64,000 bases of DNA from NCBI GenBank assembly GCA_045532735.1, contig JAZSGL010000091.1:29275-93274 (forward strand), in the 5' to 3' direction. How positions within the stretch are numbered: the first letter of the stretch is position 1; each line of letters opens with the position of its first letter. Shown one piece after another: positions 35,847-55,917 of the stretch. The notes below the pieces were generated by a model that saw only the letters and a list, made by a program, of their open reading frames with translations, was not told the origin of the DNA and searched no databases. Made by a program: the position numbers and the translations under genes. Origin of the DNA: Paludibacteraceae bacterium. Lineage in GTDB: Bacteria; Bacteroidota; Bacteroidia; Bacteroidales; Paludibacteraceae.

Positions 35847-37295
35847 TTATGCCGCTTTCTTGCTAGGTTTGAGCAGGCATATCATACCAAGAGCAGTCAA
35901 GGCCGCGTTGAGGATCAGGCGCTCGTGTGAGAACTGATAGCCATTGAACCACACTACGGAATTCACATCAATGATCCATGTGATCACAGGCGCTGCAATC
36001 ACAGCGATTGGAATCCAGCGGTCGCGTACTTGACGCTTGGTGAAGATACCAAAGCAGAACATACCGAGCAATGGGCCGTAGGTGTAGCTAGCTACCTTAT
36101 ACACCGTTTGAATCACCGAATCATCATTGAGTAGGTGAATCACATAGATACATGCCGCCATCAGAATAGCCATACCAACATGCACCCAAGTGCGGATCTT
36201 AGTGAGGTTGTCGGCCTTCTCCTTGTTGAGAATATCCACAGTGAATGAGGTGGTCAAGGCAGTCAATGCGCCACCTGCTGCAGAGTAGGCTGCGGCGATA
36301 AAACCAATGATAAACAATACACCTACAATCACAGGGAAGTAGTTACCTGTCGCTAAGAATGGGAAGACATCGTCACCCTTGAGGTTGGCTACCTCCGTCA
36401 CACCCGTTTGTGCGGCATAGGTATAGAGCAGATAACCCAAGAAGAGGAAGAGACCAATCACTACGATTTGCATCAGTGCACCTACGATGAGGTTCTTCTG
36501 ACTCTCGCGTGGGTTCTTGCACGATAGGGTACGCTGCATGAGGTCTTGGTCAAGACCTGTAGTGGCAATCACGAGGAAAACACCCGCTAGGAATTGCTTC
36601 CAGAAATAGGTACCCTCCTTAGGGTTGTCAAAGAAGAAGGTGCGAGTCATATCACTAGCTCCCCAACCTTCGATATTCACGCCTGCACGCAGCACAAAGT
36701 AGATACAGAGTGCTACAGACAGGATCAGACAGCAGGTCTTCAGCAGATCGGTCCAGATGAGCGACTTCACACCACCCTTGAAGGTGCAGAGATATACGAT
36801 GAGCACAGTGATGATAGCATTCACCCAGAATGGTACTGGCACGGCCAATTTGTCGAATACTAGCAACTGTAGCACTTCGCTCACTACGAACAAGCGCACA
36901 CTAGCGCCGAGCATCTTGCTCACGAAAAAGAGCCATGCTCCTGACTTATAGGTGCTCATACCAAAACGCTGTTGCAGGTATTGGTAGATAGAGGTGAGAT
37001 TGAGCTTATAGTACAGCGGAATCAGCACATAAGCGATAAGGAACTGACCTACTGTGAAGCCTAGCACCATCTGCATGTATGCCCAGCCCGAAGTGGCTAC
37101 CATACCTGGTACACTGACAAAGGTAACACCAGAGATAGCAGCGCCGATTGTGGACATAGCTACCAGCAGCCAGTTGCTGCTACGGTTGCCTGAGAAGAAA
37201 CCGGCATTGTCGGCCTTACGCCCCGCCAAGTAGGAAATGAAAAACAGCAATGCAAAATAGCATGCGATGACTAATAAGATTGTTAATGGATTCAT
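35847..37295 (-). CDS. Sodium:solute symporter family transporter
   Basis: 482 aa, polytopic and hydrophobic throughout. The N-terminal pattern is SSF-like (AGRKADNAGFFSGNRSSNW). Confidence 0.8.
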   Translation of the reverse strand: MNPLTILLVIACYFALLFFISYLAGRKADNAGFFSGNRSSNWLLVAMSTIGAAISGVTFVSVPGMVATSGWAYMQMVLGFTVGQFLIAYVLIPLYYKLNLTSIYQYLQQRFGMSTYKSGAWLFFVSKMLGASVRLFVVSEVLQLLVFDKLAVPVPFWVNAIITVLIVYLCTFKGGVKSLIWTDLLKTCCLILSVALCIYFVLRAGVNIEGWGASDMTRTFFFDNPKEGTYFWKQFLAGVFLVIATTGLDQDLMQRTLSCKNPRESQKNLIVGALMQIVVIGLFLFLGYLLYTYAAQTGVTEVANLKGDDVFPFLATGNYFPVIVGVLFIIGFIAAAYSAAGGALTALTTSFTVDILNKEKADNLTKIRTWVHVGMAILMAACIYVIHLLNDDSVIQTVYKVASYTYGPLLGMFCFGIFTKRQVRDRWIPIAVIAAPVITWIIDVNSVVWFNGYQFSHERLILNAALTALGMICLLKPSKKAA

Positions 37296-37307
37296 ATATT
37301 CTTTAGA

Positions 37308-37355
37308 AGTTAGATTTTGGACCGCTGCGCTGTTAGACCGCCTGCGGCTGTTAGA
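37308..37355 (-). repeat. Three TCTAACAG-type words (18-bp period) in the namZ-like/symporter intergenic gap
   Basis: The plus strand reads AGTTAGA at 37308, CTGTTAGA at 37330 and CTGTTAGA at 37348. On the minus strand the words are oriented toward the symporter start. Confidence 0.7.
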
Positions 37356-38540
37356 TTATTCTTCGTAGAGGAGATATGGACGGCGTTGGTCTTTGAACTT
37401 CGCCACATCCTCTTGCCAGCGAGCTGCGATCTCTTCTTCGCTCTTGCCCTGATTGATCATCTTGCGAACATAATCCACACCTACTAAATACTCAAAGAAA
37501 GGACGGAAGAAATAGTTGTCCATATTCAGATGCTTGTATGCATCTAGTAGATAGCGCAGTGAGAAGCCCACCTTGCGTGCTTCCTCTTCGCTCATACCGC
37601 TTAGGTCCACGCCGTCGCAGATGCGGCCTTTCTGGGTGGATTGGTTAGGCGTGAAGGTGATAGCAGGTCCATATACGCTGGCCTCGGTACGAGGTGCATT
37701 GAAGTTAGGGTGACCATAGCAGAGGAATGGTTTGTCGGTGCCACGGCCCAATGATACAGGCGTTGCCTCAAACAGACATACCGCTGGATAGAGGTAGATA
37801 GATAGCATATTGCGCAGGTTTGGCGATGGCGCTACAGGCAGACGATAGAGGGTCTGATGGGTGTAGTGCTTACATGGGATGACCGTGAGATCCACTTGGA
37901 GGGAATCATAGAGCCAATACTCGCCGTTGATCATCAACGCTAGCTCGCCCAAGGTCATACCATGTACTACGGGTATTGGCAATGCGCCTACACCTGATTT
38001 GTGCTTCATATCTAGTATAGGACCATCCACATACCACCCATTAGGGTTAGGACGGTCGAAGACGATGAACTGCTTGCCATCATGTGCGCAAGCGTCCATC
38101 AGGCGGAACATCGTGATATAGTAAGTGTAGAAGCGGAGTCCTACATCTTGGATGTCAGTGATAAGGATGTCAAAAGTGGCCATGGCCTCCTTAGAGGGGC
38201 GATAGCTCTTTCCATCGTAGAGCGAGAGAATAGGTATGCCCGTCTTCTCATCCACGCTGCTAGCCACATGCTCGCCTTCACGAGCAGTGCCGCGGAAACC
38301 ATGCTCTGGGGAGAAGATGGCGGTAACCTCTACGCCATGCTTGAGCAAGAGGTCTAGGGTATGAATAGTGTCTTTGCCTTGGATCACGATACCCGTATGG
38401 TTGCTCAGTAGCGCTACGCGCTTACCCTTGAGCAGGGGGAGGTATTGTTTGGTTTGCTCTGCGCCTAATACTACACGCTCGGCATAAATGGTAGTCAAGG
38501 CTGCGCAAAGAAAAGCAAGAATAGTGATAATCTTCTTCAT
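37356..38540 (-). CDS. DUF1343 / NamZ-type exo-beta-N-acetylmuramidase (GH171-like)
   Basis: The hallmarks are LLSNHTGIV, FSPEHGFRG and DIQDVGLRFYTYY. The signal peptide MKKIITILAFLCAALTTIYA starts at the ATG at 38540. Confidence 0.85.
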   Translation of the reverse strand: MKKIITILAFLCAALTTIYAERVVLGAEQTKQYLPLLKGKRVALLSNHTGIVIQGKDTIHTLDLLLKHGVEVTAIFSPEHGFRGTAREGEHVASSVDEKTGIPILSLYDGKSYRPSKEAMATFDILITDIQDVGLRFYTYYITMFRLMDACAHDGKQFIVFDRPNPNGWYVDGPILDMKHKSGVGALPIPVVHGMTLGELALMINGEYWLYDSLQVDLTVIPCKHYTHQTLYRLPVAPSPNLRNMLSIYLYPAVCLFEATPVSLGRGTDKPFLCYGHPNFNAPRTEASVYGPAITFTPNQSTQKGRICDGVDLSGMSEEEARKVGFSLRYLLDAYKHLNMDNYFFRPFFEYLVGVDYVRKMINQGKSEEEIAARWQEDVAKFKDQRRPYLLYEE

Positions 38541-38570
38541 AGATTGTATTTTATATTGTATATAGCGGTA

Positions 38571-38578
38571 CAAAGGTA
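38571..38578 (-). promoter_or_regulatory. -7 box (TAccTTTG on the minus strand) internal to PUL2
   Basis: The plus strand reads caaaggta. It lies 31 nt upstream of the ATG at 38540. Confidence 0.5.
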
Positions 38579-38615
38579 CTACTTTTTTCAGAAATATGCA
38601 AATTATTACGGATGA

Positions 38616-39500
38616 CTATTCTAGGTCCTTAACCAGGCGAACTGCATTTCCGCCGGTTCGGTTGTCATAACCAATACCTGCGCCATCGCACATAAAGAGG
38701 AAATAACTAGCAAATTGAGGACCATAGGCAGCATGTGGTGACGAAGTCCAATACAGACCACCTAGTTGCATGTATGCGAGCATGGTACCTAAGCGGAATC
38801 CAGCACAGGGCAAGAAGACAGCTCCTGCATTTTGCATCATCGCCCATTCTGCAGCAGTGAATGATTGGTATTCCTCGAATGCCACAGAACTATATTCCTT
38901 GTCGCTATAGCCACTTTTGAAAGTGATTCCCTCGGGGGATTGCCAATTATCGGGTAGCAGAATCAAACCGTGTGATCCAGCTACAGAGCCTACGCCAATA
39001 AGCTGGGAGGCATTCTTGCGTTTAGCTCGTAGATACTCCCATTCGGCAGAAGTGAGCGTACGCCATGTATTGCCATCATCGATGGCGGTTCCCCAATCCA
39101 CAAAATTACCATTGAAAAGACTATTATCTTCGGATAGGGTCACGCCCCAAGCGGTAGAAGGATCGGTGTCGGTGCTCCATGCAAAGAGGTCGATGGTGTC
39201 AGCAAAAGCCTGATTCACCATATTACGAGTACCTATATACGCATATTGCTGAGCGGCAAACAGCCATGTGGAAGATGAGGGAATGTATTGTAGGTTGCCA
39301 GGAGCAAAGGCCACAGTCTTATTGCTAGCAACCGAGAAAACACCAATGGCCTCAGGCGCATCGGTGGAGAAAGTGATACTATCAATCTCTGAAATATGAA
39401 ATTCAATCGCTTCGTTATTGCGCCAAATAGTAAGGATATCCTGAGATGTAGCGGTCAATAAGGAAAATAAAAAACAAAAAGAGAGTGATATTTTTTTCAT
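38616..39500 (-). CDS. Secreted FISUMP/DUF1566-like (lectin-fold) protein
   Basis: Signal peptide present. The motifs WRTLTSAEWEYL, FLPCAGFR, GGLYWTSS and GNAVRLVKD match the Fibrobacter-paralogous/DUF1566 pattern. Confidence 0.6.
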   Translation of the reverse strand: MKKISLSFCFLFSLLTATSQDILTIWRNNEAIEFHISEIDSITFSTDAPEAIGVFSVASNKTVAFAPGNLQYIPSSSTWLFAAQQYAYIGTRNMVNQAFADTIDLFAWSTDTDPSTAWGVTLSEDNSLFNGNFVDWGTAIDDGNTWRTLTSAEWEYLRAKRKNASQLIGVGSVAGSHGLILLPDNWQSPEGITFKSGYSDKEYSSVAFEEYQSFTAAEWAMMQNAGAVFLPCAGFRLGTMLAYMQLGGLYWTSSPHAAYGPQFASYFLFMCDGAGIGYDNRTGGNAVRLVKDLE

Positions 39501-39566: not shown

Positions 39567-41303
39567 TTACTTAGCTTTAGGGAACTCAATAAGTGCGAAA
39601 CCACCCTTGGTAGCAGCGGTGAAGACTACGAGTTTGCCATCCACCTCAGCTGCGTTACATTGAGCAGCGCAAGCACCAACGGTCTTGTTAGCATCTGGCT
39701 CAGTAGGATCGAGTGAGTAGTGGTAGGTAGGCTCCCAGAAGATCTCCTCATCGTACAACATTTCAGACCACTTGATAAGCGCAGCCTTGGTGTCCACACC
39801 ATCGGTGATATCTTGCAAGAACAAACCAGGACCTGCACCAATACGCTTACCGTTGTTGTAAGGAGTAGAGAATACGAGGTAGCGACCACGGTTGAACATG
39901 ATCACATGAGGATCTACACCACTGCGTGGGTTCAAACCGCTCTCGGTAGCATCCAACTCGATATCCTCCATGAGGGATACACCATTAGCATCCATGAGGC
40001 GGATAACAGCCATATAGTGGCTCTTGAATACATATTGACCTGCCTCTGGAGTCTCGTTGATATAGCCATAGTATGGGAATGGAACATCGAGAATGATCTC
40101 AGTAGGATTAGAGAACTGATTGAAGTTGGTGATTTGTACACGGTAAACCTTCTCAGCAGAACCCTCTTGGCCGCAGAAGAATGCATAACCATTACCAGAT
40201 TGATCAATATTAACAGAAATATTATCTCCCAAACGAGCAGGAGCACCAATAGTGTCACCCTCCTCGGTTACGCCAAGTACGCCATCCCATGACCAAACCT
40301 CAGGAGCGGCATTAGCATCCGCATAGTGATAAACCTTGAGAGGAGCATCAGCATTAAGTGTAGTAGTGAGGTTACAGATATAGATGTGACCGTGGTTCAA
40401 GCTACCAGAGCTTACTACGTGTGTACCACCTTCGATACCAGTAGTGTTGAGAGCAATCTTGTTGCCTGCGTTGTCAGCCAAAAGGTCAGATACCTTGTAC
40501 AGGTGTGGGAACGCAGAACCATCGTCGTTGCGAGATACTACGAGTACGTGCTCGCCGTCGAAGTCAGTACCACGAGTATTCTCAGCTGCAAACTCAGCTG
40601 GAGCATTGCCCGTAGCTACAGAGAAATCGTGAACTACTGCTGCAGCGATATCTGCACCTGGGGTAGGAGCAGCCGCAAAAGTGATATCGAATACAGTCTT
40701 ACGACCCATGAATTCGATCTCCAATTGACCTGGGTTAGCAGCAGAGAGTTTGTCGTCTTGCATAGCGGTGAACTTATAAGAAGCGCGTGCAGGGATTACA
40801 GAGATCTTGCTAAACACAGCCTCTGCCTCCTCTGGCATACCGAGCGCTACAGCACCATCAAAAATCAATGCTTTAACCTCCTCACCAGTGGTGCCTTTTT
40901 TCATGTACAAAGCATCCAACATAGGATCAGATGTTGGGTCAAGAAGATTGATGATAACGGTGTACTCTTGCTCTTTGGTTCCATTGATGACCTTAATGGT
41001 TTGTACCAATTGTTTGCCGTCCTCAGAAGCACCTAATGTGAAATCATAGGTGTCTTTCTCTAATTTAGCACCCAAAGAAAGTTTTGCGGTAAATTGAATA
41101 GCTTCGATATTAGTCTCAGCTGCTACATCATTAAATGTAACTGTGTAGGTGGTATTGTCCACTTCACCAGCATATGTGGTGTTCTTGATGGAGATGGTCT
41201 TGATCAAAGCCTCTACTGTGTCTTCTGGTGTTGGCTTTGGTTTACAACCTACGAATAGTACGCTCAACATGGCGATACTAAGGAAAAAAAGATTCTTTTT
41301 CAT
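39567..41303 (-). CDS. PUL-encoded surface lipoprotein (Ig-like N-terminal domains, beta-rich C-terminus)
   Basis: Lipobox LFVGCKPKP. It occupies the SGBP position after SusD. No catalytic motif was recognised. Confidence 0.6.
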   Translation of the reverse strand: MKKNLFFLSIAMLSVLFVGCKPKPTPEDTVEALIKTISIKNTTYAGEVDNTTYTVTFNDVAAETNIEAIQFTAKLSLGAKLEKDTYDFTLGASEDGKQLVQTIKVINGTKEQEYTVIINLLDPTSDPMLDALYMKKGTTGEEVKALIFDGAVALGMPEEAEAVFSKISVIPARASYKFTAMQDDKLSAANPGQLEIEFMGRKTVFDITFAAAPTPGADIAAAVVHDFSVATGNAPAEFAAENTRGTDFDGEHVLVVSRNDDGSAFPHLYKVSDLLADNAGNKIALNTTGIEGGTHVVSSGSLNHGHIYICNLTTTLNADAPLKVYHYADANAAPEVWSWDGVLGVTEEGDTIGAPARLGDNISVNIDQSGNGYAFFCGQEGSAEKVYRVQITNFNQFSNPTEIILDVPFPYYGYINETPEAGQYVFKSHYMAVIRLMDANGVSLMEDIELDATESGLNPRSGVDPHVIMFNRGRYLVFSTPYNNGKRIGAGPGLFLQDITDGVDTKAALIKWSEMLYDEEIFWEPTYHYSLDPTEPDANKTVGACAAQCNAAEVDGKLVVFTAATKGGFALIEFPKAK

Positions 41304-41348: not shown

Positions 41349-43118
41349 TTACCATCCCCACTCTGTATTTTGTGAGAGTGTATATCCTTTGGTCTTATAT
41401 AGTGTGATTTGGCCAGAAGGAATAGGGTTGATATAGTTGCGCTTGATAGGACGCTCGCGTTGACCTAAGGTATTGCGCAAGATATATCCTTCAGTAGCGT
41501 TAGGGTCTTCCAGTACTACCTCTGTACCTCTCTTAGGGAAATCGCTCAAGCGGATATATGCACCATAGCGGATATCAGGGTTACAACCATTCCATAGGTA
41601 ATCGAGTTTGCACCAACGCTTGAGGTCGTTGAGGCGGAAGCCTTCCATGCAGAGCTCTATGCGACGCTCACGGCGGATCTCCCATAACATAGCATCGGTA
41701 ATACCGCCATCGGCATTTTGCTCGATTTGCATGCGTTTAGGATCATCAAATACCACTCCATTGATAGCAGGTTGGCCACCTACTATTTGCAATGCAGGCA
41801 AGTTGACATCCTCGCGTGCGCGAATCTTATTGATTGATTTGTCCAGATCAGCCTGTGTAAATGCTTCACCAGCGAGCAAGTGCAATTCGTATGCTGCCTC
41901 GGCGTAGTTGAGCAATACCTCTGCATAACGCACACATGGTGCATCGGTGGTATTCTTCTCTCTAGCCCAAGTAGGTTCTGGTTTGTCCACCTTGCTGTCG
42001 TCCATAAACTTGCTCCAAGAATAGCCCGAAAGTGAGTAGTTGAATGGCTGATTGTCCTCGCCCTTGATATAATATTTAGGACGAATACATTGTGCTAGAC
42101 GAGCATCACGATTAGCAAAAAAGTCATTTGCAGTTGGTGCAACCCAATTAGCATCTTTGCAATATACAGGCAGACCATCGCTAGCCACGAATGCCTCGGC
42201 GAGTGAGCGGCTCAATCCCGCTTGTGCCTCGGTATAGGAATAAGCGAGGGTAGAGTGGGCTAGTACACCATCCACATAGTGGCGATGCATAATAATCTCA
42301 AGATTGCTACCTAGATCTTCGCTAGTAAAGAGAGCCTTGTAGGAAGGCGTGATTGAATATTTATTAGACTTCATCACGATTTCTGCAGCTGCTTTAGCCA
42401 TCGTCAAGCATTTTTTAGCCAATTCGGTATCGATATTGTGATACTTGAGGAAAGTACCCTCGCGCAACATAAGGCGAGATGCCATAGCAGCAACCACATA
42501 GCGGTTGACTTGCAAAGCACCATCATTCTCGCGTACGCTATCCATAGCATATTGGAAGTCTGCCATGATGCATGAGTCCACATACGCGCGTGGGTCGCGA
42601 TCCTTATACAGGTAGTCCATGTCCTCTTTGCTAGAGCTGAGCTTAGGAACGCGGTCATACCAAGGTACATCACCATAGCGGAAGACTAGGTTGCTATAGT
42701 AGCAAGCACGGAAGAAGCGTGCTACGCCACGCCAGTGGTTCTTAGCCGCAGGAGTAGCATCAATGCGATCAATGCTAGCTAGGGCATAATTGGCTTTGCG
42801 GATATTAGAAAAACTCCATGATCCGTCTGACTCTGGTACAACCTCAGGGGTAAGATTCTTTTGTTCTTGATCAGAGGCAAAATCATCGTTGGATGTTTGT
42901 CCCATTAGGAACGAACCATGTGATGCTCCTGAACCATATCCAGAGAAGATGGAGGTGTAGAAACCATACATATAGGTGCGAGCTTGATCCTCGTTTTGCC
43001 AATACTCCTCATCGGTGAAATCATCGTAAGGAGGTTGGTTGAGGAAACTGTCGCAACTGGTCATCGTAAAGGCCAATACTACAGCCCAAACGGATAGAAA
43101 AATATATTTTGTTTTCAT
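41349..43118 (-). CDS. susD: SusD/RagB-family lipoprotein
   Basis: MKTKYIFLSVWAVVLAFTMTSCDSF from the ATG at 43118 (43124 is also possible). The SusD-like C-terminus RERRIELCMEGFRLNDLKRW is present. Confidence 0.9.
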   Translation of the reverse strand: MKTKYIFLSVWAVVLAFTMTSCDSFLNQPPYDDFTDEEYWQNEDQARTYMYGFYTSIFSGYGSGASHGSFLMGQTSNDDFASDQEQKNLTPEVVPESDGSWSFSNIRKANYALASIDRIDATPAAKNHWRGVARFFRACYYSNLVFRYGDVPWYDRVPKLSSSKEDMDYLYKDRDPRAYVDSCIMADFQYAMDSVRENDGALQVNRYVVAAMASRLMLREGTFLKYHNIDTELAKKCLTMAKAAAEIVMKSNKYSITPSYKALFTSEDLGSNLEIIMHRHYVDGVLAHSTLAYSYTEAQAGLSRSLAEAFVASDGLPVYCKDANWVAPTANDFFANRDARLAQCIRPKYYIKGEDNQPFNYSLSGYSWSKFMDDSKVDKPEPTWAREKNTTDAPCVRYAEVLLNYAEAAYELHLLAGEAFTQADLDKSINKIRAREDVNLPALQIVGGQPAINGVVFDDPKRMQIEQNADGGITDAMLWEIRRERRIELCMEGFRLNDLKRWCKLDYLWNGCNPDIRYGAYIRLSDFPKRGTEVVLEDPNATEGYILRNTLGQRERPIKRNYINPIPSGQITLYKTKGYTLSQNTEWGW

Positions 43119-43156
43119 ATTCATACTATTACAAAGTTTCAACATTTCTGAGTTCA

Positions 43157-46402: not shown

Positions 46403-49400
46403 TTTATTACTTTGTTTCCGTTAATAATATACATACCTTGTGGCAAGTTGCTATCATCCTCGCCCAAATATTGGCCTGTGATAGTATAGATACCACTCTT
46501 GATGATTGCCTGGTTAGCATCCACATTTTCTAGACCTGTGGCAATGATAGTCAATTGATCATCGTCAGGAGCAGATACTGCGCATGTGTATTCAGTAGAA
46601 GGCAATGCCCAAGCACTTACGCTACCTGCGCCCGAAGCGTAGATATTACCTGCCACATCAAATACGATATTCCAGCATGATTGTGCGAAGCTGGTCTCAA
46701 TGCGACCTGCGGCCTCTAGTGAAGGAATGCCTTGTGCATCGTATTTCACATCCCAGATGAGAATGCCACCTGTGATAGCAGTAGCCATCTTGGTCATATC
46801 TTGGTTGAATCCAAGTGCACCACGGGTACGACCACCTAGCGCACCTGCTGAATTATAATCCACCTTACCCTCTTTGTTGATGTGAATCAAAGCAGGGATT
46901 TCTGCGTTGTCAGCAGAACGGTCTTGGCTGATCCACCAACCATACTCATCAGGTTGGATGAAACTGTTACCATTTTGTTGGAGGAAGTCAGCGTTGTCAA
47001 ATACGAGTTTGCTTGGTGCTTGTTCCCATGGTGTTGCGAGCTCGCCAATATTGTATTGATACAATCCCATAGGGTGAACGAGTCCAGGCATGTTGATATC
47101 CTCGTCAAAGGTGTAGATGACGCGGTCTTTGCCAGTGCCTTCTACCCAGATGTGGCTGATAGAACCGTGGATATCCTTACCATCCGCTGCGGTATAGATA
47201 CCATTTTCAGCAGGAGTACCGCCGAAGATAGGATTTAGTACGCTGGTGTTAGCAGGATCCATGATGTATGCGTTGTTAGGATATACATCTGCCCACTCTG
47301 AGATATACAACATATGGTCAGGACCTACAGTCACGCGGCATGGAGCGCTGACAGCGGCGCACCATTTGTCAGAAGTTACCTTCTCGATCATATCCATAGT
47401 AGCGTCGTAGATATAGATAGCTTTGTTCTCTAGCACCTTGTCACCACTAGACTCGGCCACATAGAGTTGTCCAAAGTATGGTGAGTTGTAATCATTGTCA
47501 ATAGCAAGACCCTTAGATGCCATCATCTTATCAGGCAAGTTGTCGATTGCGCAGAATGCTTCGCCCTCTCCTGGCAATGGTAAACTGGTGGCTTTGAGTG
47601 CCCAGTTGTAGGTGCCTTGTGGCAAGCCTGAGAGATTCACTTCAATGCGGTGTGCACCTTGTGTACGGTTCTCCTCTTGGTTGAGAGGACGGGTAGCTAC
47701 TACTTGTTTTGCTTCGTCTAGGAGTTGCAGTTCTAATCCAGCAGCAGGTGCATTGAGGACATAGGTGAGGATAACCTTGTTGTCAGACAAGGTAGCAGAT
47801 GACATGCTAGATGTATATGCATTCAATCCCTCTTTGCGTACGCCGGTTTGTACGCCTGGATCTTCTTCCTCTTCTTCACCCGAAACGCGTGGATAAGACT
47901 CGCGGTTGAGAGGTACGCGTGTGGTATAGGTGTTGTTGGTCTTTGGCAATGAGTACACCATCAATCGCTCGTTGGTGTTGGATACGATATAGAGGTTACC
48001 AGCAGCGTCGAAGTCCATACCCATGGTTACTACTTCGTTTTCGCTCCATTTGATGATATATTTCTCGGTCAATGTAGGTTTGCCAGTAGCATCGTATTCT
48101 ACTTCCCAAATCTTCACGGTACCATATTCAGTACCCAATGCTACAAGCGAGCCGTCCGCATTGACAGCCATACCACCTTGTTGAACAGCATCCACACCAT
48201 TGTTGGAGATATTGAAGTCCACTTCACCCTTAGCGTTCACGTGGATCAAACCAGGCTTAGCGTAACTTGAGTTATAACGGTATTGACTCATAAAGAAACC
48301 GCCGTGTTGGTCGTATGCCAACTGGCCACTACCGTTCTCCATGAATACATTGGTCATATCCTTATAGATGGTAGCAGTAGGCACTTGCTTCCATGGCAAG
48401 CTATCGAGTTCACCAATATTGTATTGCATGATATTACTATATACAGTACCCATGGAGTTATCGCGGTCATAGGTATAGAGCACTTCGTCTTTGCCTAAAC
48501 CAGTTACATAGCAGTCCATAATAGGGTTGGTAACAACTTTTGAACCAGACTTCAATTGGCCAGTTGATTTGCTGCGTTTACCACCAAAGAGAGTGATGAA
48601 GTTGCCTTCAGGCTTAGCAGCCTCCATGATATAGATACCAGCAGAAGTATATGATGAGCTAGGTACGAATACATCGCCGTTAGGAGCTACAGCAGGACGG
48701 GTAAGTGCCCATTGGTAGTTGGTACCGGTGTTGTTAGCACCCCATTCTACATTACCATGCCAAGCATTAGCACCTTGGTTGGTGATATCTTGGAAGTCGC
48801 TACTGAGGACATAGACGCCCATGCTAGAGTTACGGAAGGATTCAGCTGTACCGTATTCGCATTGTCCAGCCACAGAGTTAGTCACGTAAACGCGACCGAA
48901 ATAAGGGCTAGCAGGTGTTTTGTCAACAGCTACACCGCGAGGAGCGTAGAATTGGAATATCTCATCATCGTTGCTCACCTTCACAGGGAAAGCTACAGGG
49001 CGTGCAGTAGCAGTAATGCTGTAGTGATCAAATGCTGTCTTACCGAATGGGTTAGCTACTTTGTTCGCACCTTTCTTGAGCGCACCAACAGATTTTGTAT
49101 CCACAATTTCGTTGTTCTTCTCAATAGAAATAGTGACATCGGTAGCATCCTCGTTGAGACGGAAGATGAAGTTCTTACCATCATAGTCCACCTCACCTGC
49201 ATAGATATTTGCTACAGCAGAAGAGAGTGTTTGGTAGTGTTGCATTACTCCATCAGCCATGGTGATAATGTGCATGGTATAACCATCTACCCAAGCCATA
49301 GTATGTACTTGTGGTGCATCGGTTGCGGTAGTTCCAGGATAAGGATCACTGGCAACCTTGGCATTAGCAACACCCTCGGTCACATCATACAATTGGAATT

Positions 49401-51525
49401 GGATGCCATTGTTTGTTGGCTGAGCCATATATGCGTGATCAGCATAGCGCAAGAAGGAAGCACCTTGCTTAGTACAAACATCTCCTGTAGGAGAGAAAGT
49501 AAGTTGCTTATTGGTCAAATCCTCTTTTGCAGTAGAGGTTGCTACTTTTGCTTTGTTAGCGTCCTCATCGTATGTAATCGTATAGAGGGTAGTACCTTCG
49601 CCGAGGTAGTATTTACTCTCCCAGCGTGCTGCGCTAACTGCAAATGAATTACCTTTGACACCCAAAACAGAGAATAGTTTGGTAGGGTTTTGCATATTTT
49701 CATCCCACACATAGAAAGTACCTTGGTCTTTCACTTTAGCTACGAGGTAGTCATCCGCAGTGAATCCCATGTCGCAAAGTTCGACACCAGTAGGAAGTGG
49801 TAACGGAGTGGTAACGGTAAAGTCAAGAGAGTTTTGGGTGATCTTTCCATTTGCCAAAATATAGATGTATCCGTTACGATATAGCGCGCGCGTGATATTA
49901 TTAGGTGTAGTCTTTACTTCGTTGACCAATTCGAATTCATATTTGTCCAATGCAGCAGCATCGTTATCGGCTTGTGGATAATCCTCTACATGCATACGAA
50001 CATTCTTTAGGCGCACTTTGACACCAGCAATTTCTTCTGCAGCAACAGTGATTTCTTGAGAATAGGTGCTATATTTATCTTTCGTAACAACCAATTTGTA
50101 TGTACCAGGGGTAAGGTCATAGAAGGCAAAAATACCATTGTACCAATCATCGGTAGTTTTTTCGGCAATTTTCTTTGTGCCTTGATAGAGTTCTACCTTA
50201 GCGCCGTTCAAAGGCAACCATTGGTCGTCGGAATTCTGTACATATACGAATTTAGGTTCGCCCAATACATCCACGAGTTCGTTGCTCGATTTCACCCAAC
50301 CGCTAATGGTAGCAGTTTGTGGCAATTTCACATCAAACCACTTGTGGAAGTGGTGGAACATACGCAAAGCTTCGAGTTTGCAATAATCATCGTTCATCAA
50401 ACGGTGTGTCTCTGGAGCATAGTCGTGGAAACTACCTTCGCTAAGGAATCCAGGAACAGTAAGTGGACGAAGAACTCCCAATCCCATATCATCACCATAG
50501 AAAGTGAAGTCGCCGCGCAGCAATGGTTTAGGACTGGTCCAAACGGTGAGTTCGTTCAAGATTTGTAAATTACCGCTACTTTCAGCCATCTTATCGCTGA
50601 GTGGCACAGTAGGTTGGTCGTTGTATCCATGATAGAGCATCAATAGATAGTTGGTTCGTCCGTTCAATGCATTAGAGTGGATAGATAGGAAGTGATCCAC
50701 ATCGTTTGCGTTGGCTTCTTCTGCAATAGCGCTGAGATCACGGTCGTCACCATTGCGCAATTCTTCTTTCTCTTGCGCTGTAGCGCCAGGGTAATATTCT
50801 AAATCACGAATACCAGAGTTGTTGGTGTGGCGTGACATGATAACAGTAGCGCCTGCTTTCTTGAGCATCTCTTCGAGTGCTAAAGCTTTTGAGAGGTTGG
50901 ATTTGCTCTCCCAATAACCTGCAGGGTTGCTCCATGTTTCAGGTACAGGAACGGTCCAGCAACTACGGTCGTTAGCATCATAACCACCGTGACCAGCATT
51001 TAGATAGATCTTGATACCATTGAAGTTGGAGCGTGCAGATGTAGCATATTTGCGTGCTGCTAAGCGGATTGCTTGGCGTTGTTTCTCGCTAGCAATACGA
51101 GCTTCTTCTTTTTGAATGAAGTCTTGCTTTTCTACTTCGTTAAGATCGCGAGTTACTTTACCATCAATGGATCGTGAGATGTAACGAATATAGTCAATCT
51201 CATCGTGATCTTTGTAAAACTCTTGCATACCCGATACATGGTTGTTGTCCAACCATTTAGGAGCATTCATTCGTCCCATAGAGCGGACATTTTGGCCGTT
51301 GATATCGCACACGAATGTGCCATAACGAGCGGTGACATAGACAAGGTGCTTGCCGTCAGGCGAAACACTAGCCCAGAAATAACTAGCATCGTCTCCATTA
51401 GGAGCCAATACATAACTGCTTTCTCCGTCAGTTACCAACATCTTCTGATCTTGGATACTCACAGTCGGTTGCGCTACTAGCAGAGTAGTGAGCAGCAAAC
51501 TGAAAAATAAAGTAAGTTTACGCAT
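46399..51525 (-). CDS. Giant (1708 aa) secreted protein: PD40-like N-terminus, Amidase_3 domain, CarboxypepD_reg-like domain, two Ig/propeller supermodules, T9SS-type C-terminal domain
   Basis: The signal peptide is MRKLTLFFSLLLTTLLVAQ, followed by SPDGKHLVY. The amidase motifs are listed in the next feature. TPGTYKLVVTKDKYS marks the CarboxypepD_reg-like domain. The supermodules lie at 47908-49212 and 46567-47826. The tail is LPQGMYIINGNKVIK. Confidence 0.9.
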   Translation of the reverse strand: MRKLTLFFSLLLTTLLVAQPTVSIQDQKMLVTDGESSYVLAPNGDDASYFWASVSPDGKHLVYVTARYGTFVCDINGQNVRSMGRMNAPKWLDNNHVSGMQEFYKDHDEIDYIRYISRSIDGKVTRDLNEVEKQDFIQKEEARIASEKQRQAIRLAARKYATSARSNFNGIKIYLNAGHGGYDANDRSCWTVPVPETWSNPAGYWESKSNLSKALALEEMLKKAGATVIMSRHTNNSGIRDLEYYPGATAQEKEELRNGDDRDLSAIAEEANANDVDHFLSIHSNALNGRTNYLLMLYHGYNDQPTVPLSDKMAESSGNLQILNELTVWTSPKPLLRGDFTFYGDDMGLGVLRPLTVPGFLSEGSFHDYAPETHRLMNDDYCKLEALRMFHHFHKWFDVKLPQTATISGWVKSSNELVDVLGEPKFVYVQNSDDQWLPLNGAKVELYQGTKKIAEKTTDDWYNGIFAFYDLTPGTYKLVVTKDKYSTYSQEITVAAEEIAGVKVRLKNVRMHVEDYPQADNDAAALDKYEFELVNEVKTTPNNITRALYRNGYIYILANGKITQNSLDFTVTTPLPLPTGVELCDMGFTADDYLVAKVKDQGTFYVWDENMQNPTKLFSVLGVKGNSFAVSAARWESKYYLGEGTTLYTITYDEDANKAKVATSTAKEDLTNKQLTFSPTGDVCTKQGASFLRYADHAYMAQPTNNGIQFQLYDVTEGVANAKVASDPYPGTTATDAPQVHTMAWVDGYTMHIITMADGVMQHYQTLSSAVANIYAGEVDYDGKNFIFRLNEDATDVTISIEKNNEIVDTKSVGALKKGANKVANPFGKTAFDHYSITATARPVAFPVKVSNDDEIFQFYAPRGVAVDKTPASPYFGRVYVTNSVAGQCEYGTAESFRNSSMGVYVLSSDFQDITNQGANAWHGNVEWGANNTGTNYQWALTRPAVAPNGDVFVPSSSYTSAGIYIMEAAKPEGNFITLFGGKRSKSTGQLKSGSKVVTNPIMDCYVTGLGKDEVLYTYDRDNSMGTVYSNIMQYNIGELDSLPWKQVPTATIYKDMTNVFMENGSGQLAYDQHGGFFMSQYRYNSSYAKPGLIHVNAKGEVDFNISNNGVDAVQQGGMAVNADGSLVALGTEYGTVKIWEVEYDATGKPTLTEKYIIKWSENEVVTMGMDFDAAGNLYIVSNTNERLMVYSLPKTNNTYTTRVPLNRESYPRVSGEEEEEDPGVQTGVRKEGLNAYTSSMSSATLSDNKVILTYVLNAPAAGLELQLLDEAKQVVATRPLNQEENRTQGAHRIEVNLSGLPQGTYNWALKATSLPLPGEGEAFCAIDNLPDKMMASKGLAIDNDYNSPYFGQLYVAESSGDKVLENKAIYIYDATMDMIEKVTSDKWCAAVSAPCRVTVGPDHMLYISEWADVYPNNAYIMDPANTSVLNPIFGGTPAENGIYTAADGKDIHGSISHIWVEGTGKDRVIYTFDEDINMPGLVHPMGLYQYNIGELATPWEQAPSKLVFDNADFLQQNGNSFIQPDEYGWWISQDRSADNAEIPALIHINKEGKVDYNSAGALGGRTRGALGFNQDMTKMATAITGGILIWDVKYDAQGIPSLEAAGRIETSFAQSCWNIVFDVAGNIYASGAGSVSAWALPSTEYTCAVSAPDDDQLTIIATGLENVDANQAIIKSGIYTITGQYLGEDDSNLPQGMYIINGNKVIK
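50386..51015 (-). other. N-acetylmuramoyl-L-alanine amidase (Amidase_3) domain within the 1708-aa protein
   Basis: It spans aa 171-380: IKIYLNAGHGGYD (His), YWESKSNL (Glu), FLSIHSNAL (His) and FLSEGSFHD. This is the canonical Zn-ligand order. Confidence 0.8.
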
Positions 51526-51541
51526 GGATTAAATATTTAAG

Positions 51542-53467
51542 TTAATTGATTATATTGCCTAGTAAGTTGTATGTTTTGTCACCTCGCTTGATGTACACAT
51601 TACCATTCTCTACCCATTTAACAGAGTTCTCAGTTCCTACAATGATATCCTCTACTGCATTCTCTAAGGAAATAGTAACTCGTTGTGTTACGCTCCATGT
51701 ATCTCCAGCATTAGGGATTCGTGTTTTTACTCGCCAGTAGTAATCACCTAGAGGTAGATATTGTAGGTTGATTCGCAGTTTGGTTTCAAATGAAGTGTCA
51801 GTAACCTCTTGTGCGAAGATGATCTGTTGCATGTCGGGATCTTTAGCAAATTGAATGATATAACTATCAGCTCCCTCTACCGCCTTCCAACGGAAAGTAA
51901 ATGGAAGTTTTCGGATTATTCCGTCATCTGGATAAAGTCCAGTAGTTGCTATTGGTTGACGGAGTGGCTCGTTTAGTATACGCAGTGCATATTCATTGTT
52001 ATATTTGTCTAAGACACTGACAGCTATCTGGTGTGTAGAAGCAGAAACTTCAGTTGGTAATTCAAAGGTAGATGTGTAGGAAACTCCCACCAACATATCT
52101 CCGCGTGAATACACATTAGGCAAGTGGATAGAGTCATTAGGTACTGCGTAAATAGCAAAATGTAGGTCATTGTCTGAATGAGTCCACGATAATGTTTGAT
52201 TATTGATGGTAAGATTTTCTACCATTGTGCGTTCCTTAGCAGGTTTCCAGTTGATAGCAGGTGGTAAGGAGATGTGATGAAACTCAGCGGTTTCCTTGGT
52301 AAGGTTGACGCGCAATTTGCTACTATTGGTCCATGCTCTTGTGTTGTAGAATATAGCACCAGGTGCACCATCTTTCACTGTGCGATTGTACACTAGCTGA
52401 TTACGAATCTCGGTAGCGCTAAAAGTACCGTCTTCGTATTTATATAACGCCATACTAGAGTAGAAATGCTTGCCAAAACGATTGCAAATATCGCCCCACC
52501 ATTTGCTAAGTTTTTTGTAGTCTTGTCCGCCCCCAATCTTCCAATAGAGTTGTGGAGAGAGGTAATCTACGGTACCTTCCTCTAGCCAAGCAACAGGGTC
52601 ACAGTAGATTTCGGCGTACATGTTTCCTCCGGTGATGTTGTAAGGAAGAGTAATGCCTCTCTTGGATGCAACACTACTATCTGTGGTCCAAATACCAAAA
52701 GGAGAAACACCAAAAGTGACCCATGGTTTGACAGATTGAATGGTGTCATATACTGCTTTGATCATCTTATTGACATTTTGGCGTCGCCAATCGCCCACAT
52801 TCATATCAGCTGGTTTGTATTTAGCTACACTAGCAGCATCTTGATTGGTGGTACCCCCATATGGATAAAAATAATCGTCCATAAGAATACCATCCACATC
52901 GTAATTATTGATGATGTCGCCTACAACCTCTTTGATTCTTTGTAGCACTTCTGGTTGTGCAGGGTCAAGGTAGATGTCATTTTTGTAGTAGAGCAACCAC
53001 TCAGGATGCGTATGTTTGTAATTGAGTTTAGTGGTATCATCGGTGCCAGTCCAATCATATCCGCCACGCTTGCCATAGCGGTAAGGATTGATCCAACCAT
53101 GACAGGTTAAACCTCGTTTGTGACACTCTTCAATACAAAATTGGAGTGGATCCCATCCTGGGTCTACTCCACGCCCATTGTTCAAATAGCTTGACCATGG
53201 TTCATAACTTGATTTGTATAAAGCATCACATGCAGGACGGATATGTAGTAGTACTGTGTTCATTCGGAAGTCTACGCACTTATCCAATAGTCCGATTAGT
53301 TCTTTTTGTTGCGCTTCCTTGCCCTTAGTTGTGGATACTGGCCAATCTATGTTAGCCACTGCGGTTAACCATGTAGCACGCATTTCACGCTTTGGATAAA
53401 CGGCGGATTCTCCAAAGCCCCACATAGCAGTGAGCATAAAAACTAAAAATAGAGTTACTTTTCTCAT
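51542..53467 (-). CDS. Glycosyl-hydrolase-like family 10 (GHL10/DUF187) protein with C-terminal Ig-like region and sorting-like tail
   Basis: REMRATWLTAVANIDWP and HGWINPYRY are typical of GHL10. The tail is VEDIIVGTENSVKWVENGNVYIKRGDKTYNLLGNIIN. Confidence 0.75.
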   Translation of the reverse strand: MRKVTLFLVFMLTAMWGFGESAVYPKREMRATWLTAVANIDWPVSTTKGKEAQQKELIGLLDKCVDFRMNTVLLHIRPACDALYKSSYEPWSSYLNNGRGVDPGWDPLQFCIEECHKRGLTCHGWINPYRYGKRGGYDWTGTDDTTKLNYKHTHPEWLLYYKNDIYLDPAQPEVLQRIKEVVGDIINNYDVDGILMDDYFYPYGGTTNQDAASVAKYKPADMNVGDWRRQNVNKMIKAVYDTIQSVKPWVTFGVSPFGIWTTDSSVASKRGITLPYNITGGNMYAEIYCDPVAWLEEGTVDYLSPQLYWKIGGGQDYKKLSKWWGDICNRFGKHFYSSMALYKYEDGTFSATEIRNQLVYNRTVKDGAPGAIFYNTRAWTNSSKLRVNLTKETAEFHHISLPPAINWKPAKERTMVENLTINNQTLSWTHSDNDLHFAIYAVPNDSIHLPNVYSRGDMLVGVSYTSTFELPTEVSASTHQIAVSVLDKYNNEYALRILNEPLRQPIATTGLYPDDGIIRKLPFTFRWKAVEGADSYIIQFAKDPDMQQIIFAQEVTDTSFETKLRINLQYLPLGDYYWRVKTRIPNAGDTWSVTQRVTISLENAVEDIIVGTENSVKWVENGNVYIKRGDKTYNLLGNIIN

Positions 53468-53495
53468 GATTTATTGATTTTTGCAAAATTCGGCA

Positions 53496-53503
53496 CAAAG
53501 TTA
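53496..53503 (-). promoter_or_regulatory. -7 box (TAacTTTG on the minus strand) for the PUL2 operon
   Basis: The plus strand reads caaagtta. It lies 29 nt upstream of the ATG at 53467. Confidence 0.5.
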
Positions 53504-53638
53504 TATATTTTTTTTCAAATATGCAAACGATTTCTAGTATTATTTTTTTTTTCAATTACTTTAGTAATATTTTGTATTAAGATTGCCAAAAAAGGGTTAT
53601 TTTTAGCATATGAATTTGCATAATTCAAAAAAAATATC

Positions 53639-53646
53639 TACCTTTG
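53639..53646 (+). promoter_or_regulatory. -7 box TAccTTTG for the GH20 gene
   Basis: Exact match about 60 nt upstream of the ATG at 53707. Confidence 0.5.
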
Positions 53647-53706
53647 TCGAGAAAATTGTTCTTTCGTAGAGCAGTATATTTTATAAGAACTTTTCAATTT
53701 AATGTT

Positions 53707-55917
53707 ATGAAAACTTTCTTTCGCTTATTTACAATCGCGGCTTTAATGGCAATGGTGTCATGTACCAAACAAATTCCTATGTCTATCCATTGGGAGATGG
53801 GTAAAAATGATGTCAAGCCAGGCATTTGTGAGCTTTATTACACGATTACTAATCTCTCTGATCAACCGATCACCAATGAAGGATGGACTTTGTACTTCAA
53901 TTACATGTCACTACACCCTATTTACACAGAGGGTGATCAGATTTTGCAAACAGAATTGCAAGCGAGTTATCATAGCATTACGCCAACTGCAGATTTTTTG
54001 CCATTGATGCCAGATAGTAGCCGTACTTTTAAGCTTCTATTCAAGGGTAATGTTATTCGTCAGACATCGCGCCCAGAGGGCTTTTTCTTGGTAAAAAATA
54101 AGAACGGAAAAGAGATTGGTAAGCCCATTTCGATTCCATGTACCTATGCGCCTTTTACACGCCCGGAGCAGATGAAGCGTGGTATCGTGACATGGGAAAA
54201 GACGCCTTATGCAGAAGGAGCATATGTGTTTGATTATGTGCAACATATATTAGATGCTCCTACTAATAAAAATGTGCAACCTCTTTTGCCGCAGCCAAAG
54301 CAGATTCAGTATACAGAAGGTACTTGCGAAGTGGCTAATGCAGAGGTAATTACTCGTACAGACGCGAATATGGTTAGCGAGGGATATCACATGGTTATCG
54401 CACCTACTACTATTACTATCGAGGCAAGTGATGAGGCGGGTATTTTTTATGCTCAACAGACTATCAAGCAATGGGGCGAGGTGATACCTTGTGGTGAGGT
54501 GACTGACTATCCAGATCTTCATCATCGCGGCATTATGTTGGATGTGGTGCGCAACTATTATCCAGTGGATTCTATTTTCCGCATATTGGACATCATGGCA
54601 TACCACAAACTGAATGTACTGCACTTTCACTTGACCGATGATGAGGCATGGCGTTTGGAGATTCCAGGTTTGCCACAACTGACCGATATTGGTTCTAAGC
54701 GAGGCTATACCACAGATGAAAGCGAATGCCTACTGCCAATGTACTGCGGCGGTTGGGACCCCGATGCACCAACCACAGCCAATGGTTATATTACACGCGA
54801 GAAGTATATCGAATTGCTTAAGTACGCTGGCGAGCGTCATATCCGTGTGATTCCTGAAATCGATATGCCTGGGCATATGCGTGCTGCCAAGAAAGCCATG
54901 GGTAAGCTATTGACAGACAGTGCGTTTGATGCACGCGTATATAAGTCTGCACAAAACTATACCGACAATGTGATTGATGTGAGCAAGCCTTATGCGGTGG
55001 AGTTTATCGATCATGTGGTGACGGAGATTGTTAAGATGCACGAGGAGGCAGGTCATCCGCTGACGATCTTCAATATCGGAGGTGATGAAGTACCAAAGGG
55101 TGCGCTGACGAAAGAGGAACATCAAGCGTTTATTGATGCCGTTTTGGAGATACTGAAGCGCTACAACCTGCAACCAATGGGTTGGGAAGAGATTGATCAT
55201 TTCTGCCAGCCAGAGAGTGGTGCTATCTGCTATGCTTGGCTCAACAGTGAGAGCAAACCGATGCAATTGGCAGAGGCTGGTTATCAAGTAGTTATCGCAA
55301 CTGCTAGTCATCTGTATTTTGACTTTGCGTATTGCAACCACCACGAGGAGAAAGGACTCAGTTGGGGCGGATATACCGACGAATACCGTTCGTTTGACTG
55401 GCAGCCCGCTCAACACCCCAATATCATCGGTATGAATGCCCAACTATGGGGCGAGGTTATCCGCTCGTTTAGTCAAGTAGAATGGCAGATATATCCAAAG
55501 ATCTATGGTTTGGCAGAGCGTGCATGGAATAACCGCAGTGCACTCACCTTGGGTGATTATAATCAATTAGTATATAATGTGTTTGTTCCACAATTGGCAA
55601 TTAGCGGTCGCAATTTCCATATTCAACAGCCAGGTATCAGGTTGGTAAAGACAAAGAACGAACAATTGCAGTTAGATAAGAGTCATGTTCTCCTTGAAAT
55701 GAATAAGGTTATGACTGGTGGAGAACTCCTATATTGTCTTGATGATGGACCTTGGAGGGTATATAATACTATTGTTGCCATCCCTGCTGAAACTCAAATC
55801 GTGAAGGCAAAGGTGCGTTACTTAGGTAAAGAGAGTAACACTACTTGGCTGTGGCTCAATGCCAATCATGAGGTGGATAGTCAGGCAGTAGAGAGGAATA
55901 CGGGCGCAACTTTCTGA
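53707..55917 (+). CDS. Glycoside hydrolase family 20 beta-N-acetylhexosaminidase
   Basis: Lipobox MAMVSCTK from the ATG at 53707. HRGIMLDVVRNYY, LHFHLTDDEAWRLEIPGLP and catalytic FNIGGDEV are present. Confidence 0.9.
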   Translation: MKTFFRLFTIAALMAMVSCTKQIPMSIHWEMGKNDVKPGICELYYTITNLSDQPITNEGWTLYFNYMSLHPIYTEGDQILQTELQASYHSITPTADFLPLMPDSSRTFKLLFKGNVIRQTSRPEGFFLVKNKNGKEIGKPISIPCTYAPFTRPEQMKRGIVTWEKTPYAEGAYVFDYVQHILDAPTNKNVQPLLPQPKQIQYTEGTCEVANAEVITRTDANMVSEGYHMVIAPTTITIEASDEAGIFYAQQTIKQWGEVIPCGEVTDYPDLHHRGIMLDVVRNYYPVDSIFRILDIMAYHKLNVLHFHLTDDEAWRLEIPGLPQLTDIGSKRGYTTDESECLLPMYCGGWDPDAPTTANGYITREKYIELLKYAGERHIRVIPEIDMPGHMRAAKKAMGKLLTDSAFDARVYKSAQNYTDNVIDVSKPYAVEFIDHVVTEIVKMHEEAGHPLTIFNIGGDEVPKGALTKEEHQAFIDAVLEILKRYNLQPMGWEEIDHFCQPESGAICYAWLNSESKPMQLAEAGYQVVIATASHLYFDFAYCNHHEEKGLSWGGYTDEYRSFDWQPAQHPNIIGMNAQLWGEVIRSFSQVEWQIYPKIYGLAERAWNNRSALTLGDYNQLVYNVFVPQLAISGRNFHIQQPGIRLVKTKNEQLQLDKSHVLLEMNKVMTGGELLYCLDDGPWRVYNTIVAIPAETQIVKAKVRYLGKESNTTWLWLNANHEVDSQAVERNTGATF

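Follow-up and report, generated by a model that had tools for sequence, protein, structure and literature searches.

In a window of 64,000 nucleotides from a Paludibacteraceae bacterium (assembly GCA_045532735.1, contig JAZSGL010000091.1, positions 29,275 to 93,274 of the forward strand), we found that one divergent plus-strand gene and eight co-directional minus-strand genes probably make up a Sus-like polysaccharide utilization locus (PUL) for the glycan backbone of bacterial peptidoglycan. The basis of this reading is computational. By searching the window proteins with the profile hidden Markov models of Pfam and NCBIfam, we recovered GHL10, Amidase_3, SusC, SusD, NamZ, GH20 and the Na+/solute symporter family (SSF) at the very positions given by a first-pass annotation made from the letters alone (Table 1). 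That annotation had interpreted the gene set as a peptidoglycan-harvesting system, an interpretation which is supported by the sequence or the fold of every enzyme tested, and nothing at the locus points to another glycan. We also compared the locus with its relatives by taking one genome per species, which yielded 72 loci, and by scoring all their open reading frames (ORFs) with the window proteins.

The region is organized as Sus-like PULs are. First, susC-like and susD-like genes lie next to each other on the same strand. Second, they are accompanied by degradative enzymes (GHL10, GH171 and GH20, the GH numbers being glycoside hydrolase families) and by a candidate surface-binding lipoprotein (DUF4623). 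Third, no linked regulator, whether a hybrid two-component system (HTCS), a SusR or an extracytoplasmic function (ECF) sigma/anti-sigma pair, was found in the window flanks or conserved at the related loci, which bears out the regulator-free neighbourhood described in the first-pass annotation. A linked regulator is usual in PULs but is not required for a locus to be called one.

Enzymes, importers and binding proteins

The largest protein of the locus (1708 aa) has a signal peptide and, judging by sequence and model, is equipped with a MurNAc-L-Ala amidase domain (MurNAc, N-acetylmuramic acid) in which the zinc-binding and catalytic motifs are kept. The predicted zinc ligands and catalytic glutamate (H179, E206, H283 and E363) do not vary among 15 homologues, and the motifs GHGG, SIHSN and LSEGSF are likewise invariant in 15-42 homologues. 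In an alignment with Escherichia coli AmiC, GHGG (H179), SIHSN (H283) and LSEGSF (E363) face their AmiC counterparts, and YWES (E206), which stands beside a 3-column gap, aligns by motif. An AlphaFold model of residues 1-520, with a predicted local distance difference test score (pLDDT) of 85, superposes on CwlD (7rag), a Clostridioides difficile amidase structure (4rn7), AmiC2 (5emi), LytH (7tj4) and CwlV (1jwq) with template modelling (TM) scores of 0.75-0.82. CwlD, a spore-cortex amidase, is the top fold match of the model and also the best NCBIfam match of the domain, the latter far below the cutoff. Finally, the catalytic domain of AmiC has an extra segment that is not present in the window enzyme (alignment A4). 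We take this segment to be where the division amidases of E. coli have their autoinhibitory helix, which is released by EnvC/NlpD.

The catalytic domain is preceded by a beta-rich module, AmiN, which is found beside the amidase in 71 of the 72 loci. By analogy with GerS for CwlD and ActH for LytH, AmiN may be a built-in partner of the amidase. On the other side of the catalytic domain, residues 521-1240 model as two tandem beta-propellers (pLDDT 90), and in residues 1241-1708 the second propeller module occurs once more (hhalign probability 100%). When DUF4623, the 294-aa protein of the locus, AmiN and the propeller modules were compared profile to profile, the relation of propeller 1 to propeller 2 was the only one detected. 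A likeness of the propeller region to PorZ and to the BT4673 sensor was discarded, as these were generic tandem WD40-like matches with TM scores of 0.2-0.3. In distant relatives, AmiN (~300 aa), an amidase-propeller protein (~1200 aa) and an extra propeller protein are encoded by three adjacent but separate genes, and the window protein ends in the same tail as the stand-alone propeller protein of one of these loci (L045). Both observations indicate that the window gene is a fusion of three genes, which in turn supports a joint function of their products.

Parts of this architecture also occur in other settings. An AmiN (~300 aa) and amidase (~800 aa) pair was seen without SusCD genes in L070-L082, on contigs titled Bacteroides fragilis, Muribaculaceae, Mariniphaga, Saprospiraceae, Neomarinimicrobiota and Fidelibacterota; the pair thus appears to be older and more widespread than the PUL. 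At many related loci, a stand-alone propeller gene (~480-530 aa, without Pfam family) that shares homology with the amidase's propeller modules is located between GH20 and GHL10, for instance at L003:6498-7970 and L009:5930-7381. There is none in the window.

The amidases of related loci end in Por_Secre_tail (PF18962) domains, and the GHL10 proteins of relatives match this domain weakly; the tail of the window GHL10 enzyme gave no match to the sorting-domain profile of the type IX secretion system (T9SS). The Bacteroides nordii homologues end in T9SS-like tails as well. To our knowledge Bacteroides have no T9SS, in which case such tails would be unexpected. In the Bacteroidaceae metagenome-assembled genome (MAG) HGM04601, the T9SS core genes gldL, gldM and gldN are found directly upstream of the locus (L049:3-3515). 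Linkage to the T9SS was rejected as a general feature, as gldLMN accompany this locus and no other fetched one.

The gene ahead of the amidase encodes a GHL10 enzyme with a signal peptide and a C-terminal extension of ~240 aa, which the first-pass annotation could not place. By sequence, it is a member of the DigH/Cwp19 family of peptidoglycan glycan-strand cleavers: it shares 36% identity over 330 aa with E. coli DigH (E 3e-64), its closest solved relative is C. difficile Cwp19 (5oq2, E 5e-79), and DigH of strain MG1655 itself matches the GHL10 profile with 453 bits. DigH is a hydrolase specific for the peptide-free ("denuded") glycan strands left by septal amidases (PMC12288456), and the GHL10 domain of Cwp19 has peptidoglycan lytic transglycosylase activity (PMC6016235). 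Since DigH degrades strands bared by amidases, an amidase gene together with a DigH-type gene forms a two-step unit with precedent, in which the GHL10 enzyme fits directly after the amidase.

The NamZ protein contains both strings quoted in the first-pass annotation, PEHGFRG (within SPEHGFRG) and DIQDVGLRFYTY. It is ~70% identical to B. fragilis BF0379 (4jja, E 7e-160) and keeps the proposed active-site residues, namely the Glu of PEHG (in PEHGFRG) and the Arg of GRGT (in LGRGT). BF0379 and the window NamZ sit in the branch of Tannerella forsythia NamZ2, not in that of NamZ1; TfNamZ2 releases MurNAc, and NamZ enzymes require a free lactyl carboxylate, that is, the earlier action of an amidase. 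The GH20 enzyme is of the chitobiase type (CHB_HEX, GH20b and GH20), its nearest solved structures being chitobiases (9joq, 1qba), and is likely a lipoprotein (MKTFF...MVSC). Because it lacks the acidic export motif, this lipoprotein is expected to be oriented towards the periplasm. The signal peptide of NamZ is a plain one, and on these sequence features both enzymes probably stay in the periplasm.

The nearest solved relatives of the symporter are NIS, SMCT1, the sialic-acid symporter SiaT (5nv9) and SMVT, all of which carry anions or carboxylates. Its sequence accordingly places it in the carboxylate-substrate branch of the Na+/solute symporters, which suits MurNAc. In T. forsythia, MurT is a member of the sodium symporter superfamily and its gene adjoins namZ1, an adjacency mirrored by NamZ and the symporter in the window. 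By sequence and by this analogy, the symporter is a candidate MurT-like importer of MurNAc at the inner membrane. A search for its homologues returned only relatives at 94-100% identity and no T. forsythia MurT. The symporter gene comes after that of NamZ at 17 related loci; at one more, L049, it stands at the head of the cluster.

On the uptake side, SusC has no STN domain; the first-pass annotation was right on this absence but not in treating it as an oddity, STN-less SusC proteins being the common case. SusD has a probable start at MNMKTKY and a lipobox (...MTSC-DSF). The DUF4623 lipoprotein always comes directly after it and occurs at 43 of the 46 related loci with a SusC; its solved relative (4ftd) is an uncharacterised protein. 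In relatives of the DUF4623 protein, the sequence from the lipid-anchor cysteine onward reads C-K-D-D-D or C-K-E-D, and K-D-D-D/K-E-D after the anchor cysteine presumably resembles the surface-export signal of Bacteroides. From these sequence features, the DUF4623 protein is the candidate surface glycan-binding protein of the locus. The 294-aa protein has a signal peptide and no lipobox, and it had no match when Pfam, NCBIfam and PDB were searched at thresholds up to E = 10. It belongs to the set only optionally, being confined to the 13 loci nearest to that of the window. Thus, of the two surface proteins proposed in the first-pass annotation, the DUF4623 lipoprotein stands, with its export-like motif in relatives, and the 294-aa protein is left with a signal peptide alone.

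Recurrence of the gene set among Bacteroidales

Public data contain more than 360 homologues of the amidase protein, and five homologue neighbourhoods showed the same cluster down to 47% identity. Among the 72 loci, GHL10 is next to the amidase in 52, SusC is present in 46, and SusD and DUF4623 in 43. The divergent GH20 (25/72), NamZ (22/72) and the symporter (18/72) were counted less often, these three numbers being bounded by the extent of the fetched flanks: NamZ, GH20 and SSF turn up wherever the fetched flank extends to them. About 45 species-level genomes share the gene set. Its hosts are Paludibacteraceae from ruminants and humans, unclassified Bacteroidales, Prevotellaceae and Dysgonomonadaceae from termite guts and a Bacteroidaceae MAG, together with the cultured species B. 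nordii. The nearest locus, also from Paludibacteraceae (L017), is 94% identical.

The co-location of GHL10, amidase, SusC, SusD, DUF4623, NamZ and GH20 is kept across Bacteroidales families, and the genes flanking the set differ between lineages. In termite-gut Prevotellaceae the set is kept with a changed order (SusC-SusD-DUF4623-GHL10-AmiN-amidase). The locus is absent from most of the Bacteroidales genomes sampled.

Two peculiarities were noticed in individual assemblies. In B. nordii (L048:207-2326), the GHL10 gene is present as two overlapping ORFs of 478 and 295 codons; the assembly is a draft, and the split reflects a frameshift, a sequencing error or a pseudogene. In addition, three 'cleanbin' assemblies titled Mycobacteriaceae, Acidaminococcaceae and Agathobacter rectalis (L026, L028 and L079) carry the locus or the amidase pair and are apparently mis-binned or mislabelled.

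Gene layout, promoters and neighbouring sequence

We scanned the window for the Bacteroidetes-type promoter motif TTTG-N18-22-TAnnTTTG, using 100 shuffles as background. The window holds 12 copies, as against 1.15 expected, none of the 100 shuffles reached 12, and nearly all the copies sit immediately upstream of genes; the motif is therefore informative in this genome. Within the locus, copies precede three genes: GHL10, GH20 and NamZ. The -7 box that the first-pass annotation had assigned to the minus-strand genes is real (TAACTTTG at 53503-53496 on the minus strand, with TTTG 20 nt upstream). The same annotation had described a single gene string under that box; this holds for the box ahead of GHL10 but not for the string as a whole, since a second promoter with TACCTTTG as its -7 box is found ahead of NamZ.

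The motifs also bear on two gene starts. As the internal promoter extends over 38571-38602 (-), we set the start of NamZ at the ATG at 38540. Likewise, the promoter motif of GH20 overlaps the TTG start of its listed ORF, which moves the start to the ATG at 53707; the divergent transcription of this gene agrees with what had been described. The promoters of GHL10 and GH20 are near mirror images, with 44-nt inverted arms that are 80% complementary. When a shared operator was sought across the three locus promoters, this mirror-image pair was the sole repeat. Scans for sigma-70 promoters and terminators gave counts at chance level, except for one strong hairpin past the symporter gene, which closes the transcription unit. 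Within this unit, the amidase and SusC genes share 4 nt, the SusC start overlapping the amidase stop, an arrangement also kept in L001, L003 and L009.

Table 1. Genes, transcription signals and protein domains of the locus. Positions are those of the window unless residues are indicated; P1 and P2 are the promoters of the minus-strand genes.
Feature	Position	Strand	Evidence or remark
Na+/solute symporter	35847-37295	(-)	Pfam SSF 85 bits; TIGR00813
NamZ (GH171)	listed ORF 37356-38573; corrected 37356-38540	(-)	NamZ_N 248 bits, NamZ_C 119 bits
294-aa protein	38616-39500	(-)	no family
DUF4623 lipoprotein	39567-41303	(-)	Pfam 208 bits
SusD	listed ORF 41349-43181; probable 41349-43124	(-)	SusD_RagB, SusD-like_3
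SusC	43157-46402	(-)	TIGR04056 820 bits; SusC signature; CarboxypepD_reg + Plug + barrel
1708-aa protein	46399-51525	(-)	Amidase_3, residues 173-381, 45 bits (cutoff 27)
GHL10 enzyme	51542-53467	(-)	Pfam GHL10 208 bits; signal peptide
GH20	listed ORF 53644-55917; corrected 53707-55917	(+)	Pfam 269 bits; Glyco_hydro_20b; weak CHB_HEX
Promoter P1, TTTG-N20-TAACTTTG	53496-53527	(-)	ahead of GHL10 and downstream genes
Promoter P2 (internal), TTTG-N20-TACCTTTG	38571-38602	(-)	ahead of NamZ and symporter
GH20 promoter motif	53615-53646	(+)	overlaps listed TTG start of GH20
Intrinsic terminator hairpin	35800-35828	(-)	13-bp stem, T-rich tail; 19 nt past symporter stop
AmiN beta-rich module	residues 1-165 of 1708-aa protein		
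Amidase_3 catalytic domain	residues ~173-400 of 1708-aa protein		
Transthyretin-like (CarboxypepD_reg-like) domain	residues 437-507 of 1708-aa protein		
Tandem double beta-propeller	residues ~521-1215 of 1708-aa protein		
Extra copy of second propeller module	residues ~1241-1660 of 1708-aa protein		
C-terminal tail resembling T9SS sorting domain	end of 1708-aa protein		

The locus is flanked on one side by genes for a metallophosphoesterase, a DUF3127 protein and phosphoglycerate kinase, and on the other by genes for a GyrB/ParE-type topoisomerase subunit and a CAAX protease. Neither murK nor murQ was found within the 64-kb window, and the locus contains no chitinase, mucin enzyme or plant-glycan enzyme.

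Elsewhere in the window, a second and unrelated PUL occupies 2522-14715 (+), with SusC, SusD, a DUF5016/DUF5121 surface protein, GH30, a GDSL esterase, a 406-aa protein without family and GH3. After it, at 14838-15695, a BspA-type leucine-rich repeat is joined to a TonB C-terminal domain. The segment from ~16000 to ~32000 has a lower G+C content (0.38-0.44) and looks like a mobile island; it holds a DUF3987 gene, a DUF6088 and AbiEii toxin-antitoxin pair, an ATPase_2/DUF4143 gene and a gene for a 2684-aa protein with six Flg_new_2 repeats. Two near-identical 32-nt promoter-like sequences were found at 19863 and 22022.

Proposed mechanism, alternatives and known systems

From the families, catalytic motifs, amidase fold, promoters, terminator and conserved synteny described above, we infer cellular locations, an order of action, an imported species, a symporter substrate and a purpose (food or MurNAc supply) as follows. 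The 1708-aa protein and the GHL10 enzyme would be secreted and retained at the cell surface, probably by means of a type IX secretion tail. There, the double beta-propeller part of the 1708-aa protein would hold cell-wall material and its Amidase_3 domain would cut the MurNAc-L-Ala bond, leaving peptide-free glycan strands. Still outside the cell, the DigH/Cwp19-type GHL10 enzyme would cleave these bare strands into oligosaccharides, which SusD and the DUF4623 lipoprotein would capture and SusC would import. In the periplasm, NamZ, acting on peptide-free non-reducing ends, and GH20 would alternate in removing MurNAc and N-acetylglucosamine (GlcNAc) from the non-reducing end, and the Na+ symporter would then carry MurNAc into the cytoplasm. 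The propeller-bearing surface amidase may also graze directly on neighbouring or dead cells. With this model taken further, the locus would be the first instance of a 'utilisome' widespread in Bacteroidales that eats the walls of other bacteria, starts with an amidase and imports peptide-free strands through SusCD, a proposal to which we give an even chance.

Several points weigh against a PUL for the peptidoglycan backbone. The chitobiase-type GH20 is also compatible with chitin oligosaccharides. The locus contains no endopeptidase, peptide transporter, lysozyme-type GH, murK or murQ, so that it does not encode what becomes of the peptides and of MurNAc. With 14.1 bits on TIGR04183, the tail of the window amidase stays below the cutoff of 23, which makes the surface display of the 1708-aa protein uncertain. 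Substrate induction cannot be argued, as there is no adjacent regulator. Lastly, NamZ and MurT are known from the salvage of a bacterium's own cell wall.

This last point leads to an alternative in which the locus is housekeeping, its enzymes trimming products of the cell's own peptidoglycan turnover in the periplasm and SusCD recapturing leaked fragments. Not only NamZ and MurT-type symporters but also amidases are known from salvage operons, GH171 has been reported as a core family in Bacteroides, DigH and Amidase_3 enzymes work on the septal wall of E. coli itself, and the generic-looking promoters with no regulator nearby would fit a housekeeping role. We nevertheless consider it unlikely, because the combination of a TonB-dependent SusC/SusD pair and its own lipoprotein serves to take up polymers from outside the cell, because the amidases of relatives carry type IX tails, which route proteins beyond the outer membrane, and because a double-propeller module of 700-1100 aa would be superfluous for periplasmic trimming. 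Nor does the patchy distribution described above suit a core function, the locus being absent from most sampled genomes. An outward-directed role could also be that of a weapon, with the surface amidase and GHL10 lysing neighbours, antagonism or predation being primary and the import of debris secondary. No immunity gene, toxin-delivery system or endopeptidase is present at the locus to go with such a function, and an amidase combined with a bare-strand-specific enzyme is ill-suited to breaching an intact cross-linked wall. Moreover, four of the nine genes (SusC, SusD, DUF4623 and the symporter) look like binding or uptake functions and two more encode exo-acting digestive enzymes. Hence a weapon seems improbable to us, even if cells are lysed by Cwp19, which is an autolysin, a propeller module of this size could bind foreign cells and the loci come from the dense gut communities of ruminants, termites and humans.

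The substrate could finally be another amino-sugar polymer: chitin or chito-oligosaccharides, host N-glycans, spore cortex, or archaeal pseudomurein from gut methanogens. The locus has no GH18/GH19 chitinase, sialidase, fucosidase or mannosidase, its NamZ is closely related to a member of a MurNAc-specific family (~70% identity), and peptidoglycan is the substrate of DigH and Cwp19, the GHL10 members that have been characterised. Chitin in particular was rejected as substrate, given that a chitinase is missing and that the other three enzymes come from families characterised on peptidoglycan. Pseudomurein has neither MurNAc nor a lactyl-Ala bond. These arguments make a different polymer very unlikely in our estimation, despite the CHB_HEX domain of the chitobiase-type GH20, the position of CwlD as top fold match and best (far sub-cutoff) NCBIfam match of the amidase, and the many hosts from ruminants, which are rich in methanogens. 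We therefore retain the peptidoglycan backbone as the probable substrate.

Who consumes peptidoglycan in guts, and how its fragments pass the outer membrane of Gram-negative bacteria, are poorly understood. If a PUL for the peptidoglycan backbone is confirmed, it would extend the PUL paradigm by a new class of substrate and by a new kind of initiating chemistry, and would assign a role to DUF4623 and to the large propeller module. Besides providing MurNAc and carbon, the system would clear or alter the pool of NOD-stimulating wall fragments in guts; it would also point out gut and rumen bacteria able to lower or alter immunologically active wall fragments. As B. nordii is cultured, the proposal is directly testable.

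The first-pass annotation could not map the architecture to a described system, and we likewise found no published description of it in the literature that we searched. In the full-text literature searched, with most subscription journals outside it, no SusC/SusD locus for peptidoglycan was described and DUF4623 was not mentioned. In a survey of 13,537 PULs, which counted CAZy families, peptidoglycan-targeting GH families were under-represented. GH171 was defined in 2021. As far as we know, GHL10 has no CAZy family. Given that the amidase is not a GH, that GH171 is recent and that GHL10 presumably goes uncounted, a locus of this kind would have looked in that survey like a PUL with a lone GH20.

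Among characterised systems, the murQ-murR-murP-amiE-nagZ-namZ operon of Bacillus subtilis performs the same steps, namely amidase action, exo-removal of GlcNAc and removal of MurNAc by NamZ (GH171), and, like the window locus, encodes a MurNAc transporter alongside. However, B. subtilis is Gram-positive and, unlike the window locus, its system involves no outer-membrane import, SusCD or GHL10 endo step. Its hexosaminidase is NagZ instead of GH20, its MurNAc uptake goes through a phosphotransferase system (PTS; MurP) instead of a Na+ symporter, and its operon holds MurQ and a regulator, neither of which is found at the window locus. The ampG-namZ1-murT-murK-murQ cluster of T. forsythia, a MurNAc auxotroph, also shares features with the window locus: it belongs to the Bacteroidales and has NamZ beside a sodium-symporter-type MurNAc transporter, as in the window, and it serves foreign peptidoglycan fragments, as proposed here. 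No amidase or GHL10 is listed for this cluster, whereas the window has both; conversely, it has AmpG, MurK and MurQ, none of which is at the window locus, and its NamZ is NamZ1, whereas that of the window falls in the NamZ2/BF0379 branch. In the papers on T. forsythia and B. subtilis salvage that we searched, no SusC/SusD, TonB-dependent transporter or other outer-membrane importer is named.

In E. coli, AmiA/B/C followed by DigH and lytic transglycosylases follow the same two-enzyme logic with homologous families. There, the enzymes work in the periplasm on the septum of the cell itself and serve cell separation, and their genes are unlinked, whereas the window genes are linked and would serve feeding; the E. 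coli amidases also have the extra catalytic-domain segment that the window amidase is without (alignment A4). Thus, the window locus joins the chemistry of the B. subtilis, T. forsythia and E. coli systems to a Sus-like packaging, and none of the three combines both. For the packaging, the chitin locus of Flavobacterium johnsoniae offers a parallel, with a multi-domain enzyme secreted by the T9SS, SusC/SusD, a surface lipoprotein, a periplasmic GH20 and an inner-membrane sugar transporter. Compared with a PUL of that type, the window locus has no linked regulator, its initiating enzyme is an amidase and not a glycoside hydrolase, its endo-acting enzyme is GHL10, and its proposed substrate is a peptide-cross-linked bacterial polymer.

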